In this document: piece by piece, positions 8,594 to 16,973 of the stretch | Position numbering within the stretch: position 1 is the stretch's first letter | How the letters are laid out: each line of letters begins with the position of its first letter | Origin: a virus | Lineage: Duplodnaviria > Caudoviricetes | DNA: 36,593 nucleotides | Virus record (IMG/VR): IMGVR_UViG_3300031949_000106 | Span: 1 to 36,593 of that record | Strand: one strand, 5' to 3' | Notes under the pieces: generated by a model | What the model saw: the letters and a program-made list of their open reading frames with translations, nothing else | What the model was told of the DNA's origin: nothing | Database searches by the model: none | Position numbers and translations under genes: made by a program

Positions 8594-8652
8594 TCGCAAT
8601 TAAAAAGATATAAAATATGACGCTAAGGCAAAAACAGGAAGGAACATAGGGT

Positions 8653-8982
8653 ATGACACTAGGACAAAAACAGGAAGTATTTTTATACAACGTCGGGCGG
8701 TTGATCGTTTGGGCGTTCGAGAATGGGTATCACCTTCGACCAGGTGAGCTTCAGCGGACAGTTGAGCAGCAAAGATTTTACTTTGAAACAGGCAAAAGCA
8801 AGACAATGGAAAGCCGCCACATTGACAAGCTGGCAATTGATTTGTATTTGATTGTTGATGGTAAACTAGCGCCAAAATACAGATACGCAGAATTGGCGGC
8901 GAAGTGGAAAAGCTTAGATCCGGATAACGTTGCTGGCTATGATTGGGCGTGGGATGCAAATCATTTTGAAATGCGGCCGTAA
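8653..8982 (+). CDS. Endolysin, peptidase M15 family (L-Ala-D-Glu endopeptidase-like)
   Basis: R-T-x-E-Q-Q, SRH-x6-D (SRHIDKLAID) and DxxH (DANHFE) zinc motifs. Confidence 0.88.
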   Translation: MTLGQKQEVFLYNVGRLIVWAFENGYHLRPGELQRTVEQQRFYFETGKSKTMESRHIDKLAIDLYLIVDGKLAPKYRYAELAAKWKSLDPDNVAGYDWAWDANHFEMRP

Positions 8983-9060
8983 CTCCCCGGCAACTATTCC
9001 CCGGGTAAGTATTCTATGGTAATTCCCCGGCAACTATTCCCCGGGTAAGTATTGCACGGT
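8981..9060. repeat. Tandem direct repeat, 2 x 40 bp
   Basis: 30-bp identical core TCCCCGGCAACTATTCCCCGGGTAAGTATT at 8984-9013 and 9024-9053. Confidence 0.95.
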
Positions 9061-9174
9061 TAAAGTATTATTCCGATATTTACAGCACACATTACCACGA
9101 AGCGATTTTAGAAGCAAGGCGATTTTTTCATGTATTAGTTTGTTTGTGATTGATTTTAGTTAGGTTGGACAGCG

Positions 9175-9204
9175 AAAAGCCCGGTAAATTTACCGGGCTT
9201 TTTT
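9175..9204. terminator. Bidirectional intrinsic terminator between the converging late and early arms
   Basis: Perfect 28-bp palindrome AAAAGCCCGGTAAATTTACCGGGCTTTT (9175-9202) with A and T tails. Confidence 0.85.
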
Positions 9205-9279
9205 GTTGAGAACTCGTTCTGTTAAGTAGTGCTTTGCGCCGGTATGGTAGCCGGAAAATCACAAAGCTAAAAAAGATCG

Positions 9280-9398
9280 TGGAGAAGGCAGGATTCGAAC
9301 CTGCACGACACATCCCGCAACTAATGGCTAGTTGCCAGCGGGGCAAGTGATGTATCTTCCCTTCCGACGTGAGCGTCTACCAATTTCGCCACTTCTCC
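9280..9398 (-). ncRNA. tRNA-like RNA (Leu-type D arm, intact acceptor and T arms, no recognisable anticodon arm), 119 nt
   Basis: GGAGAAG/CTTCTCC acceptor stem, TG-GCG-AAATTGGTAGA-CGC D arm, GCAGG-TTCGAAT-CCTGC T arm, A discriminator; 68 nt between D and T arms. Confidence 0.8.
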
Positions 9399-9404
9399 AA
9401 TATT

Positions 9405-9800
9405 TCAAACTTTACAAACCCCGTCCTCAACGGCCTCTGCAAAGTCGTTTTTGTCCATAGTTTTTGATTCGGTTTGATATGTAAATTCAATTTCTTCTGA
9501 TCCGTCCGCGTTCCAGAAGGAAATATCCAGATCGTATAAGTTCCTGTCAACTAATTTAGCATCTGCCTGGTATTCTCGGCTTTCTGGTATGTGTTGGAAC
9601 TCATCCACCCGGCGGCCGCTTACAGTCATTTCCTGCGATCCGATGCCGAGAAGAAACTCAAAATATGCTTCATATTCATCATCGTATAAATGACGGCTGT
9701 CAGCGTCCTTAATTTCTGTGATAATGTGGTCTAGAATTTCGGCTTCAAGATCAATGATCTTAATTGCCGTTGCTTGGATTGTTGGATTGAATTTTTTCAT
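9405..9800 (-). CDS. Hypothetical acidic protein, 131 aa
   Basis: ORF downstream of the 9844-9887 promoter; ends 6 nt before the tRNA-like RNA. Confidence 0.75.
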   Translation of the reverse strand: MKKFNPTIQATAIKIIDLEAEILDHIITEIKDADSRHLYDDEYEAYFEFLLGIGSQEMTVSGRRVDEFQHIPESREYQADAKLVDRNLYDLDISFWNADGSEEIEFTYQTESKTMDKNDFAEAVEDGVCKV

Positions 9801-9843
9801 GATATGGATTTTGAATGTGTTCGTTTATGTGATTGTTTTACCC

Positions 9844-9887
9844 GCAATTACGGGATTCTTTAGCGGCTAAACTATGACTTTTGTCAT
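9844..9887 (-). promoter_or_regulatory. Promoter: ATGAC-N4-GTCAT palindrome, 22 bp, then GTAATTGC
   Basis: Palindrome at 9874-9887; octamer identical to the one at 17187-17194. Confidence 0.65.
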
Positions 9888-9889
9888 GC

Positions 9890-10240
9890 TTATAAAATCT
9901 TCTCAGTTAATTCTTGAAATTCTTCAAGGCTCCGCACAATGAAGTAATAAAAACCGGCATGATCAACCACTTGCTGCCACTTTTCTTGCGCTAGTGATTG
10001 CCTCCCGCTCTCTGTTTTAAACTCAATCAAATAAGCTATCCCATTCCACAAAAAGATTGTATCTGATACGCCAGGGACCTGCCCGACTGCCTTGCGCCCC
10101 ATTGCCCGGACAACGTGCTCTGAGTTGTTATTTACCGCGAAAAATAACCCCCTGGTTTCCGGGTAATTATTCCAAAGCCATTTCACGCATTCGGCTTGGA
10201 TTTGGGCTTCTGATTTTTTCTTATTCATGTCGCCAGTCAT
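9890..10240 (-). CDS. VRR-NUC domain nuclease (PD-(D/E)xK)
   Basis: SEAQIQ...GVSD...IEFKT..GRQS..Q..W signature. Confidence 0.9.
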   Translation of the reverse strand: MTGDMNKKKSEAQIQAECVKWLWNNYPETRGLFFAVNNNSEHVVRAMGRKAVGQVPGVSDTIFLWNGIAYLIEFKTESGRQSLAQEKWQQVVDHAGFYYFIVRSLEEFQELTEKIL

Positions 10241-10384
10241 TTAACATTTGTTATTTATTTACTCGCTTAAACCTTGGTAGTGTTTGAAACAGGCAACTAA
10301 CCAAACCTGACGACCGTTACCCCGCATTAAAACGTACGCTTCGCCGGGGTAACACGTGGTATAATTTATGGCTGCTGGGAGCAA

Positions 10385-10624
10385 CTAATCAACATCTTGC
10401 AAGTTGTTTTCTTTTTCTTTTTTCCCGCCCGCGTCAGCCGTGACCGGATGTATGGAAAGGTTCAATGCTTCTAATATTGATTCCAGCTTGTCCGATCCCA
10501 AATTGTACTTTCCATTTTCAAAATCTGAAATAGTGGCATTTCGCACACCAATTTTTTCAGCCAGTTCTTTTTGTGTTATTCCGAGCGACTTGCGCCGCTC
10601 GGATATGGTTTTGTTAATTGTCAT
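10385..10624 (-). CDS. XRE-family helix-turn-helix regulator
   Basis: ISERRKSLGITQKELAEKIGVRNATISDFENG classic HTH_3 pattern. Confidence 0.93.
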   Translation of the reverse strand: MTINKTISERRKSLGITQKELAEKIGVRNATISDFENGKYNLGSDKLESILEALNLSIHPVTADAGGKKEKENNLQDVD

Positions 10625-10902
10625 GATCTAATTCTTAATGCGTAATCATCCCACACAAGTAATTTACCAAATTTTGTATCTTTTAATTTTGGAGTACTCC
10701 ACATTCTAAGTCTTTCAAAAACCTGCATCACATAGCTGTTTAATTCAAGTGGTTGAAATTTAATCTTCGATTCTGCTAAGAAAACTTGTCCGCGTGCCAT
10801 AGAATTTTCCATGATTTTGGCAACTTCGAATAGCTCATAGTGTAATTTAATTATCGGAAAGCTTGAATTACTAAAGTCTTCTATTTCAAATTGTGTTTTC
10901 AT
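10621..10902 (-). CDS. Hypothetical protein, 93 aa, translationally coupled to the HTH gene
   Basis: Start reassigned to MKTQF at 10902; ATGA overlap with the HTH gene; own promoter at 10942-10949. Confidence 0.7.
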   Translation of the reverse strand: MKTQFEIEDFSNSSFPIIKLHYELFEVAKIMENSMARGQVFLAESKIKFQPLELNSYVMQVFERLRMWSTPKLKDTKFGKLLVWDDYALRIRS

Positions 10903-10924
10903 CTTGTTTTGTTTTAAGTTGTTA

Positions 10925-10960
10925 TTTAAATTTCTATACTCCAAAGATACGGTATATAGT
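10925..10960 (-). promoter_or_regulatory. Promoter A (TATCTTTG -7 box), member of a repeated family
   Basis: TAnnTTTG at 10949-10942; 10925-10949 matches 12943-12967 at 24/25. Confidence 0.75.
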
Positions 10961-11231
10961 AACACACTCCAGGCATTTCAACAACTTTTTTACGTTTTTT
11001 CGTATTCATTTTACTTGTTTGTAACAATTAATACAAAAACCCACCCCATAAAAGAAAAAGAAAACGGCAACGGCATTTCTTCAATCAAGCTTTTCCCGGT
11101 TCAAACGCCACAAATCATACCACCAGACCGTTGTGTTTCATTGCGCTTGAAAATTTAGTGTTTAATGAAGTGTTTCCGCAAGCGCAACGGAAAACACAAC
11201 ATGCAATATACTCCAGGGCTTTTCCTTTCAT

Positions 11232-11864
11232 TTAATAAACGTCTATGCTGTTAGTCCATAAATTAATTTGCCCACGCGCTTCAATTTTTTCAAAATTGTT
11301 TGGCTTTGACCACTGTTCGGCAATGGCTTTTGCAATTCCGGGATAAGTTTTAGACCGTAATTTTTGCCTATTTTCGGAAGGTGGCATTTTCCAAATTAGG
11401 TTTTCCCTTCCTTCAACAATATTAGTAGGTTTTAACAAGGGCAGCCCATGCAACCAAATCCAAGTTTCTTTAGTTTCACCGTGTCCAAACTGCCAGGGGT
11501 GTATTATCTGGCTTCTTTTACCAATGTATCTTTGCATAATTGTTTTAGGTTGTTCTAATGCCACTTTATCACAAACCTTTTTAGCTTCGTCCCAGCTATT
11601 TTTACAAAGTTCAATCCCTTGTTTTCTTAGAGGACTATTCCAGTACCATCGGTTTCCGCTCAAAGCTGTGTAAGTGCATGGCGGGTGTAATATTATCAAA
11701 TCCCATTTCCTTAAATTCAGTGCTTTGAAAATATCCATCTGTAAATGCCATTCGGGGTGCCCTCCTGAACATTCCTGCAAATCGCAACTAAAACAATTAT
11801 GTCCAAGTTTCCTAAACTCTATTGTAGTTGCCTGGCTTTCCTCAAATCCTAAAAGAATGTCCAT
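11232..11864 (-). CDS. Atypical phage DNA cytosine methyltransferase-like protein
   Basis: ILLGFEESQ...SCDL...WDLIILHPPCTY catalytic PC motif, ALEQP, RSKTYPGIAKAIAEQW C-terminus. Confidence 0.75.
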   Translation of the reverse strand: MDILLGFEESQATTIEFRKLGHNCFSCDLQECSGGHPEWHLQMDIFKALNLRKWDLIILHPPCTYTALSGNRWYWNSPLRKQGIELCKNSWDEAKKVCDKVALEQPKTIMQRYIGKRSQIIHPWQFGHGETKETWIWLHGLPLLKPTNIVEGRENLIWKMPPSENRQKLRSKTYPGIAKAIAEQWSKPNNFEKIEARGQINLWTNSIDVY

Positions 11865-11924
11865 AAATCCCTCCCTAAAATTATTTTATTGCGTTCGTTC
11901 ATTTAATCAGTGTATGTGCGGTAT

Positions 11925-12185
11925 TCACGGCAACCGACACCTCCATAACTCTTTGCAATCTTCTCGGAGGAATGAGACACCGCCGCCATAATCAAATGAG
12001 TCAATGTATAATTTTATCGTTTCAACAAATTGCTGACGTGTTTCGGTTTTGGCCAGGTCATCAACCTTGTGAACCTTGTGAAAAGGCATTGAGTCGATGA
12101 ATACAAAGACCCGCTGCTGATATGGCGTTAGGCTTCTTGATGTTGCCGTCTGGTCTTGATTTCGATATGTTTCCGTCTGGTCCAT
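11925..12185 (-). CDS. Hypothetical protein, 86 aa
   Basis: ORF in the early operon, 3 nt after the upstream gene. Confidence 0.65.
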   Translation of the reverse strand: MDQTETYRNQDQTATSRSLTPYQQRVFVFIDSMPFHKVHKVDDLAKTETRQQFVETIKLYIDSFDYGGGVSFLREDCKELWRCRLP

Positions 12186-12942: not shown

Positions 12943-12990
12943 TTTAAATTTCTATACTCCAACGATAGTATATACTTACATACCGTGCAA
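12943..12990 (-). promoter_or_regulatory. Promoter B with palindromic operator candidate AGTATATACT
   Basis: Shares 24/25 bp with promoter A and 19/19 bp with promoter C. Confidence 0.7.
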
Positions 12991-13433: not shown

Positions 13434-13457
13434 GATGTTTTGTTTTTAATTATAGTA

Positions 13458-13490
13458 TAAAGATAGTATATACTTACATATCTTCCAAAT
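13458..13490 (-). promoter_or_regulatory. Promoter C with AGTATATACT operator candidate
   Basis: TATCTTTA -7-like box; GATAGTATATACTTACATA at 13462-13480 is identical to 12964-12982. Confidence 0.65.
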
Positions 13491-13540
13491 AAAATGTGCC
13501 AGTTTGTAACAATTGGTACAAAAATAATTTAAATCGGTCA

Positions 13541-16088: not shown

Positions 16089-16973
16089 TTACTGACTTGA
16101 TGCAATAGCCTTAAATATTTGCAGGGCTATTTGCGGCACAATCGCATTTCCGTAGGCTTTGATTGATTCGTTTCTCCACTTAGGAAAGGTAATTCCGTCC
16201 AGTCTGTTGGAAATCCCATCATTTCCGCTACAAATTGGGGGTTGAGTTGGGAAGTTTTGCCAGTTTCTGTACTTATAACATCTTCCAATCTGCTCTTTGT
16301 ATCTGTCCGGACATTTCCTCTCATTCCGTTGGTAGATACTCTTGGTGTCGGCAGTAGTTTGTAAAACATCGCTGCATCCAATATGCTGTTCGGTCTGTTC
16401 TCTCCGTTCTTTCGGCTCATCATTGTTGTTGCTCCCTTTTCCAATAATCCTTGTACTCGTTCTGGATGGTCCCGTTGTACACTTGTTGGAGTAGGCCACA
16501 AAAAAGACCCGTTCTCTTTTGTGGGGTGCATTTTGGCTGCAAGCTGGAAGTATAACCGGCTGTACTTCGTACCCTTCATTTTCCAAGTCAGCCTGCACCT
16601 GCTCGAATACCAATCCGTCTGACCAATTAATAAGCCCAGGAACGTTTTCGCCCACGATGTAGCGCGGCCTGACCTCTCTAATAACTCTAAGCATTTCCGG
16701 CCAGAGGTTTCGATCATCTTCTGTACCTTTTCTTTTTCCTGCAAGGGAGAAAGGTTGACAGGGGAATCCTCCTGAAATAATATCAACTGTTCCTCTGTAT
16801 TTTGAAAAGTCTGTTTTGGTGATGTCTTCATAAGATTCTGCGTCAGGCCAGTAATAGTTCAACACTTTTCTTCCAAATGGGTTGATTTCGCAATGAAAAA
16901 CATTCTCCCATCCCATCCATTCAGCCGCTAAATCGAAGCCGCCAATTCCGCTAAATAAGCTTCCGTGTTTCAT
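16089..16973 (-). CDS. DNA (cytosine-5) methyltransferase, alpha chain (motifs I-VIII and X)
   Basis: LFSGIGG, GGFPCQ, ENV, RERVF, GNAIV; no motif IX in this frame. Confidence 0.93.
   Translation of the reverse strand: MKHGSLFSGIGGFDLAAEWMGWENVFHCEINPFGRKVLNYYWPDAESYEDITKTDFSKYRGTVDIISGGFPCQPFSLAGKRKGTEDDRNLWPEMLRVIREVRPRYIVGENVPGLINWSDGLVFEQVQADLENEGYEVQPVILPACSQNAPHKRERVFFVAYSNKCTTGPSRTSTRIIGKGSNNNDEPKERREQTEQHIGCSDVLQTTADTKSIYQRNERKCPDRYKEQIGRCYKYRNWQNFPTQPPICSGNDGISNRLDGITFPKWRNESIKAYGNAIVPQIALQIFKAIASSQ
16127..16831 (-). CDS. Nested alternative-frame methyltransferase beta chain (TRD-like repeats plus motif IX)
   Basis: 234 open codons inside the alpha gene; WPTP and LPTP repeats; LNPQFVAEMMGFPTDWT; true start uncertain. 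Confidence 0.75.
   Translation of the reverse strand: MKTSPKQTFQNTEEQLILFQEDSPVNLSPLQEKEKVQKMIETSGRKCLELLERSGRATSWAKTFLGLLIGQTDWYSSRCRLTWKMKGTKYSRLYFQLAAKMHPTKENGSFLWPTPTSVQRDHPERVQGLLEKGATTMMSRKNGENRPNSILDAAMFYKLLPTPRVSTNGMRGNVRTDTKSRLEDVISTETGKTSQLNPQFVAEMMGFPTDWTELPFLSGETNQSKPTEMRLCRK

Follow-up and report, generated by a model that had tools for sequence, protein, structure and literature searches.

The stretch of DNA analyzed here (the window; 36,593 nt, IMG/VR record IMGVR_UViG_3300031949_000106) represents an entire phage record and includes genes for head, tail, lysis, and replication functions. An overlap of 259 nt between its ends, at 95% identity and within the tape-measure gene, makes the genome look circular, although CheckV gives 52%. 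The phage encodes a YqaJ exonuclease and an Erf/Rad52-like annealing protein, and a search of its genome for PF00589 returned no tyrosine recombinase candidate, in line with an earlier note on this DNA, which had called the array described below integrase-less. The host is likely a member of the Bacteroidota, as suggested by a promoter motif, a palindrome common with Bacteroidales chromosomes, and the family of sites found at the locus. Elsewhere in the genome, two tandem 40-nt copies with internal palindromes directly follow the endolysin gene (8979-9058). A tRNA-like element with a 52-nt extra stretch (9280-9398, minus strand) scores 42.9 bits against the Rfam tRNA model, while ARAGORN finds none; it was the sole match in an Rfam search of the window and lies outside the element region. 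A C5 methyltransferase gene and a long overlapping ORF in another frame (16089-16973 and 16127-16831, both minus strand) form a pair that is also found within a cassette in a related viral locus, L047.

The locus itself sits in the minus-strand early region and comprises, in coding-strand order, a broken element 2, a 71-nt body, element 1, a 38-nt body, and a half site. Every segment placed here by the earlier note was recovered at its coordinates, including the two GTT..AAC segments of 38 nt (10316-10353) and 71 nt (11130-11200), both with complementary ends. Element 1 (10351-11132, minus strand) is a giant attC-like site of 782 nt that runs, on the coding strand, from an AAC core (11132-11130) to a GTT core (10353-10351). 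Its outer arms, 11107-11123 on the 5' side of the coding strand and 10356-10372 on the 3' side, form 17 contiguous pairs on the minus strand, 15 Watson-Crick and two G-T, as the earlier note had stated for the two mismatches on the bottom strand. Inside them lies a second stem, hereafter the bracket, whose arms (10406-10421/11050-11065) pair 16/16: at its left end (11040-11065) a 16-nt T-rich arm is followed by a G-rich motif (11040-11047), and at its right end (10406-10432) a G-rich motif (10424-10432) is followed by a 16-nt A-rich arm through which the HTH gene reads.

Element 1 follows the rule AAC-n4-6-arm..arm-n1-3-GTT on the coding strand, in alternation with bodies that have complementary ends, which is the rule of the site family described below. 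As in attC sites, AAC and GTT triplets flank an imperfect palindrome. A spacer is present and asymmetric (6/2), the first 17 pairs contain no bulge, and the left half (61-67 nt) and right half (55 nt) add up to the length of a family site. The cores, GTTACCC and GTTGTGT, are not of the GTTRRRY/RYYYAAC type, a deviation already pointed out in the earlier note.

Element 1 encloses a promoter head, a 93-aa ORF, and a gene for a small regulator, all on the minus strand. The promoter head (10942-11039) consists of an 18-bp operator-like palindrome (11019-11036) and a predicted -7 element at 10949-10942; the predicted promoter is a motif match only, TATCTTTG, which fits a Bacteroidota -7 consensus. 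Similar heads recur at about 12950-12990 and 13450-13490, and the head is 78-80% identical over 96 nt to those of cassette bodies in L047 and another related locus, L046. The 93-aa ORF (10621-10902) was assigned to no PHROG, Pfam, or PADLOC family and had no usable Atlas match; it has two relatives at 72%, and a locus search found none related in viral contigs and only this genome among metagenome contigs. The XRE HTH gene (10385-10624, 79 aa, PF01381) is predicted to encode the autoregulator of a promoter-gene-HTH module. Relatives of the HTH at 61-63% close the same kind of module in L046 and L047. Read-through tails like that of the window, with the arm codons changed, are found at the ends of HTH relatives, as seen at the protein level only. 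The cargo named in the earlier note, including the methyltransferase-like gene of element 2, was thus found as described, the promoter being a motif match.

The 18-bp palindrome is found upstream of two early promoter heads in the window (11019-11036 and 13504-13521). A 21-base palindrome pattern occurs in Bacteroidales chromosomes (L129, L133, and L137) between genes for ferredoxin-like proteins and Crp/Fnr-like regulators, identified by eye, and also upstream of genes in L132 and L134; its matches number 10 in total, several of them within coding DNA of other groups. The phage module may have taken the 18-bp palindrome over from a host, where it would be a regulator site. In another genome (G003, L125-L128), two diverged copies of a promoter-gene-HTH cassette lie 4.4 kb apart in one array.

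The 38-nt body that follows element 1 is an empty cassette body with 9-bp complementary ends and the loop motif CGTTTTAATG. This motif and its spacing are common to 29-nt bodies of L021 and L178 and occur as well in minimal sites of L021, L025, and Polaribacter phage P12002L; a search of Bacteroidia genomes with a tiny-body pattern gave 1/401, a genuine body adjoining a site in L178. The loop also contains GCGAAGC (10338-10344, minus strand), which we take to be an unusually stable DNA mini-hairpin and which is also present in the attCaadA7 bottom strand as printed. Beyond this body, a third site, absent from the earlier note, begins at the AAC at 10318 and consists of a half site (10290-10318, minus strand) with the AAC core and the coding-strand left arm. 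Its canonical partner arm was not found within 4 kb, and no attI-like motif follows the AAC. A 12-bp partner at 9321 was rejected, as it sits in a local hairpin of the tRNA-like element.

On the other side of element 1 lies the second empty body (11130-11200, minus strand), of 71 nt and with an internal hairpin, preceded on the coding strand by element 2. The right half of the element 2 site (11198-11252) has 55 nt from inner AAC to GTT, as in element 1, and the two right halves align (1/1000 shuffles as good). The outer partner arm was not found within 3-4 kb, which agrees with the earlier view that this arm appears to have been lost. The element 2 bracket (11258-11889; arms 11258-11269/11878-11889, 11/12, with G-rich inner flanks) encloses a DNA-methyltransferase-like ORF of 210 aa (11232-11864; phrog_757, E 1e-56) that reads through the right bracket arm, and both bracket matches, 16/16 in element 1 and 11/12 here, are those given before. 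Of the left half a remnant is seen (11890-11940), with the loop sequence kept and the outer end unrecognizable; the end of an ORF (11925-12185) overlaps it. The left side of element 2 aligns with bracketed units of L182 and L217 (0/1000 shuffles each) and the right side with L182 (2/1000 shuffles). Element 2 is a decayed or chimeric bracketed unit.

The window therefore contains one intact site and two half sites by the arm detector. As both sites that neighbor element 1 have lost an arm, the array is probably frozen, and excision from it is unlikely. An excision joint or circle, for which the earlier note had proposed to look, was seen in neither of two runs, searched as contigs that leave the region largely uncovered; gaps in this coverage were given no weight as evidence.

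Several controls bear on whether element 1 could be a product of chance. The arm detector for AAC..GTT sites, applied to both strands of the whole genome, returned element 1 alone at a score of at least 30 (score 39) and nothing at that score in eight block-shuffles of a 15-kb stretch. Folding of both strands over a 901-nt region, a check that had been suggested for this DNA, gave z = -3.6 for the minus strand and z = -2.6 for the plus strand, and the fold energy of element 1 is -89.9 on the better strand versus -74.7 kcal/mol. Both arms align with a 123-nt site of L038 (0/1000 shuffles as good). Chance or low complexity as the origin of the arms and the bracket is ruled out by the shuffle controls. 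A profile built from 55 normal sites scored the window halves non-significantly (E 1.2 and 3.7), the half site at 10290-10318 being its second-best window match (E 3.7). One contig of 151 nt from another study, at a depth of 3.7, covers 10942-11088 (the promoter, the left bracket arm, and 23 nt of loop) with 11 differences. A second copy of the whole 814-bp unit with other neighbors was not found in viral contigs, metagenome contigs, or INPHARED, and blastn against INPHARED gave no relevant match for element 1 or for a giant site of L195. The exact left-arm pattern had one, unrelated, match in viral contigs and was at control level in Bacteroidia genomes (18/301); the two matches to an exact pattern of the T-rich arm plus GGGNGGG were both judged to be due to chance.

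Judged from its sequence, element 1 is an oversized representative of a family of attC-like hairpins that stand between the gene cassettes of Bacteroidota-type phages. The 16-base right-arm pattern of element 1 matched 26 viral loci, of which 12 are full 121-125-nt sites with these arms, three are family-type right halves with an undetected partner, and the rest look like chance; this result upholds the attC-like nature proposed earlier. The methyltransferase-like gene has 17 relatives, and those in L002, L003, and L007 stand directly behind a normal hairpin of ~120 nt, in L003 and L007 within a body with complementary ends. We collected 55 distinct normal sites for the profile and for statistics, from records chosen for carrying the family. 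Normal sites are usually about 120 nt long (range 80-130 nt), with spacers mostly of 4-6 and 1-3 nt; 39/55 need no bulge in the first 16 pairs, and strict GTTRRRY cores are rare (6/55 at one core and 3/55 at the other). The arm sequences change between sites yet stay complementary, as the compensatory changes anticipated in the earlier note would require. One strand folds better in 52/55 normal sites, a figure biased by how the sites were found, and in 53/55 the G-T strand carries the longest ORF in the vicinity; genes run on the folding strand, which is the reverse of integrons.

The arrays alternate sites (AAC..GTT) and bodies (GTT..AAC) on the coding strand. Cargo is mostly located between sites, and cargo within a loop is a minority form. 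The inverted geometry that the earlier note had described thus holds for the window, with its genes in a giant loop and its GTT..AAC segments empty, but not for the family, in which the GTT..AAC slot holds most of the cargo. The unit common between phages is a site plus the following body, cut at AAC (G/TT on the other strand). Among pairwise homology blocks that cover a site, 11/16 start at most 4 nt from AAC, and for the three pairs with a complete unit in common, which come from four contigs and belong to one cassette family, the homology ends at most 2 nt from the next AAC. Selection of the loci had relied on a motif within the site, which favors such starts, yet the homology does not continue upstream. 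Homology between phages therefore breaks at the cores, as had been expected. The proposal of a gene-shuffling system is supported in this respect, for a recurring family with breakpoints at its cores, whereas present-day shuffling at this locus is doubtful, since element 2 and the site below 10316 are broken.

Genes within site loops were also found outside the window. Whole ORFs of 89-113 aa lie inside 314-417-nt sites of L015, L021, and L006, the last with two such sites, and in every case the next body is short and contains no ORF; giant sites are few compared with about 55 normal sites in the same records. A scan for outer arms plus an inner stem, covering the window and 29 virus records chosen for the family or for related genes, gave six matches, compared with 0 in 569 kb of shuffles. 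Besides that of the window, three true bracketed giant sites were found in G409 and G416, with unrelated arm sequences and genes: a 730-nt site with two ORFs and inner arms pairing 16/16 in G409, and sites of 780 nt (209-aa ORF, 24/24) and 325 nt (43-aa ORF, 14/15) in G416. Giant loops with variable cargo, which the earlier note had called for, are thus recurrent. In these two genomes the distance from AAC to the bracket is 56-59 nt and that from the bracket to the end of the site is 60-62 nt, compared with 67 and 56 nt in the window. A 1363-nt unit of L217 was reclassified as a bracketed body, as its body ends are complementary (8/10) and normal sites lie on both sides; the 12-bp inner stem of L181, a self-palindrome at shifted positions, was not counted as a bracketed site. 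Long calls with scores of 33-39 and no inner stem were treated as chance or cross-pairs.

The bracket stems are A/T-rich. Counted as perfect inverted repeats of at least 11 nt that have G-rich motifs inside both arms, brackets number 17 and are spread over 12/31 records, against 0, 1, and 0 in three shuffles; a 24-bp case that has no G-rich motif was left out of the 17. A script placed four brackets in sites and six in bodies, with seven unclear, which became three and seven for sites and bodies after L217 was moved; brackets are thus found in ordinary cassette slots too, and not only in site loops. Their arm sequences vary from case to case, and no empty bracket was found among those surveyed. 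The promoter head and HTH of the window form a plain body in L046 and L047, genes of L046 are bracketed in L200, and bracketed genes of L217 are unbracketed in L024 and L032, so that the promoter-gene-regulator module is found in either slot. The inner arms, which the earlier note had taken as part of the element, are real but constitute a separate module. Two accounts were set aside: a split G-quadruplex at the bracket base suits element 1, but GCG or GAGCGATGG is present in many brackets, and a reading of the inner ends as ordinary GTT..AAC body ends holds for the window arms only. In L228 (G426, minus strand 8626-11730), two nested brackets of 21 and 22 bp with a C-rich direct repeat between them surround a 3-kb promoter-led module, whose terminal small regulator-like gene reads through the arm. 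The bracket provides a clear marker for finding gene capsules.

A candidate enzyme is encoded in related arrays. Arrays of this kind contain the closest HTH relatives (L046-L048), and the L047 array ends at a gene for a 277-aa tyrosine recombinase. Nine loci encode relatives of this recombinase, of which eight were examined after one duplicate was dropped. An attI-like motif, YAAC-n4-6-ATATGT, lies just upstream of the integrase gene in 8/8 loci, and family sites lie upstream on the same strand in 6/8, the other two having less than 430 nt upstream. The L047 enzyme is collinear with archaeal XerA (PDB 5hxy and 4a8e) over residues 6-267 with no long gap; its best alignment with IntI4 (2a3v) does not extend past residue 178, and the IntI insertion is absent. 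It scores 162.6 bits against TIGR02249 (cut-off 265) and 183.2 bits against XerA_Arch (cut-off 220). Relatives (E <= 1e-45) are present in 17/61 Bacteroidales genomes; 4/18 of the host loci have a family site within 1.5 kb, one with the phage geometry and three with the site downstream on the opposite strand. The earlier note had invoked a host tyrosine recombinase acting in trans. No such gene was found in this genome, but the best candidate is a phage-borne XerA-like enzyme, encoded at the end of related arrays and with host relatives, not specifically a host enzyme.

Taken as a whole, these observations make it probable that element 1 is an integron-like recombination site that carries a predicted self-regulated two-gene module in its loop, closed by a recurring inner stem. 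The window unit (10317-11130, 814 bp) consists of the giant site and the 38-nt empty body. By analogy with attC sites, a XerA-like tyrosine recombinase of the L047 type would insert such units as folded single strands, and could be supplied in trans by a co-infecting phage, a prophage, or the host. In the circular form, the body ends would pair as a core stem of 9 bp that adjoins the 17-bp arm stem, and a computed fold of the 814-nt circle has this arrangement. In the array, each core is computed to pair with its own body (P 0.97), with no core pairing across the site (P 0.0), an arrangement that would brake excision. The outer helix of element 1 forms on both strands in the computed folds. 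Long loops reduce classical attC recombination by up to 4 logs in replication, but not on single-strand delivery, according to the available text of PMC8946536. At the weakest step of this scheme, a bracketed capsule would enter the middle of a ~120-nt scaffold by homology-driven exchange, for which the shared loop and the G-rich motifs could serve as exchange points; the phage encodes YqaJ and Erf/Rad52-like proteins. The perfect inner stem may have been retained because it isolates the cargo from the site when the DNA is single-stranded; a role as a thermodynamic clamp was not supported, as the outer helix has P 0.98-0.99 with or without the inner arm. More tentatively, and less likely than not, Bacteroidota phages might shuffle genes at two levels, by a XerA-type enzyme that accepts loops of at least 0.7 kb and by the exchange, within sites or bodies, of stem-sealed capsules that often consist of a promoter plus a regulator.

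The same stems could instead act in RNA, closing genes in an early polycistronic mRNA and influencing its processing, stability, or translation, with the modules spread by homologous recombination at shared flanks as in PeSL cassettes. The wobble strand is the sense strand in 53/55 sites, body ends and brackets pair on the sense strand too, and the window genome encodes YqaJ and Erf/Rad52 proteins and no integrase, all of which would suit such a role. The breakpoints fall at the AAC core, however, a conserved motif and a tyrosine recombinase gene mark the end of the arrays, and both stems of element 1 enclose its predicted promoter. With the promoter inside the bracket, the module's own mRNA would lack the left arms. 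We regard this explanation as rather unlikely for the sites; for the bracket alone, an RNA-level role is plausible.

There is also little reason to favor a dead site, in which a promoter module would have inserted once into a normal ~120-nt site and inactivated it, even if the two halves of element 1 sum to the family length, both neighbors are broken, and the whole unit was found in no other copy. A bracket occupies the same position in three other sites, whose outer arms are intact and whose cargo is different; the arms of element 1 are themselves intact, its left junction is present in the contig of another study, and the HTH relatives keep the read-through tail with changed arm codons (protein level only). 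This makes a one-off insertion unlikely. Alternatively, the bracket could be a separate mobile element that targets the scaffolds, either a cargo transposon of the non-autonomous kind or a second site-specific system in which the G-rich direct motif would be the crossover. Such an element would account for perfect terminal inverted repeats of 11-24 nt with a repeated inner motif and for fixed positions in two kinds of scaffold, but it would have to do so with arm sequences that differ between cases and with no empty bracket among those surveyed, and we consider it very unlikely. It would in any case be compatible with the explanation of the outer site as an integron-like recombination site.

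Element 1, as analyzed here, would work like an integron cassette site but is not a member of that class by core, length, orientation, or enzyme. The likeness lies in AAC..GTT foldback sites with one favored strand, as described in the available parts of PMC5371416 and PMC8946536, in units bounded at G/TT, and in a recombinase gene and attI-like motif at one end of related arrays, on the favored strand. Unlike in integrons, where the gene precedes the attC site on the strand opposite the folding strand, the genes here are on the folding strand; the family cores are not GTTRRRY, the spacers are about 4-6/1-3 nt, and there is no regular extrahelical base. Element 1 measures 782 nt, compared with 57-141 nt for attC sites in the available text of PMC5371416, and its loop holds whole genes and a predicted promoter. 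The recombinase of related arrays does not have the IntI insertion, and the window array has no linked IntI gene and no adjacent attI. That recombinase resembles archaeal XerA and XerC/D-like enzymes, with which it aligns collinearly over nearly its full length, but it differs from them in sitting at the end of a cassette array. If the proposed mechanism holds, element 1, at five times the known attC length and with genes of its own, would widen the range of single-strand tyrosine recombinases, and the system would indicate that such an enzyme may not require the IntI insertion.

In T4-type phages, PeSL cassettes consist of repeated early promoter heads before interchangeable small genes. The early region of the window has the same arrangement, but the module here is bounded by long-range stems within a core-bounded site. 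The system would offer a testable route for early-region mosaicism in phages.

Surveys, including IntegronFinder 2.0, report few integrons in Bacteroidota/Bacteroidetes, as far as their available text goes (PMC9024848), and our analysis suggests that phages of this phylum carry many attC-like sites built by rules other than those of integrons. A literature search in which subscription journals were thinly covered returned no paper that deals with reversed sites, with genes inside attC loops, or with brackets. In print, as represented by the available texts, the family appears to have been touched only by two sites of phage P12002L that were called a CALIN. Qi et al. (2023) described this two-site CALIN in P12002L, a virulent phage, and reported that attC2, but not attC1, recombined with IntI1 (PMC9892861, available text). 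Like the window, P12002L has an integrase-less cluster with methyltransferase cargo, and its attC1, as printed in that text, is a minimal family site with the CGTTTTAATG loop on the coding strand. The available text of the paper does not mention reversed gene orientation, giant loops, or brackets (PMC9892861), and it tests two sites, whereas our detector, together with a motif scan, places about 13 there. About a dozen of the family sites, including sites of 187-203 nt and 403 nt, lie at 30000-41000 (minus strand) of P12002L (L241), a cultured phage that provides a ready test system.
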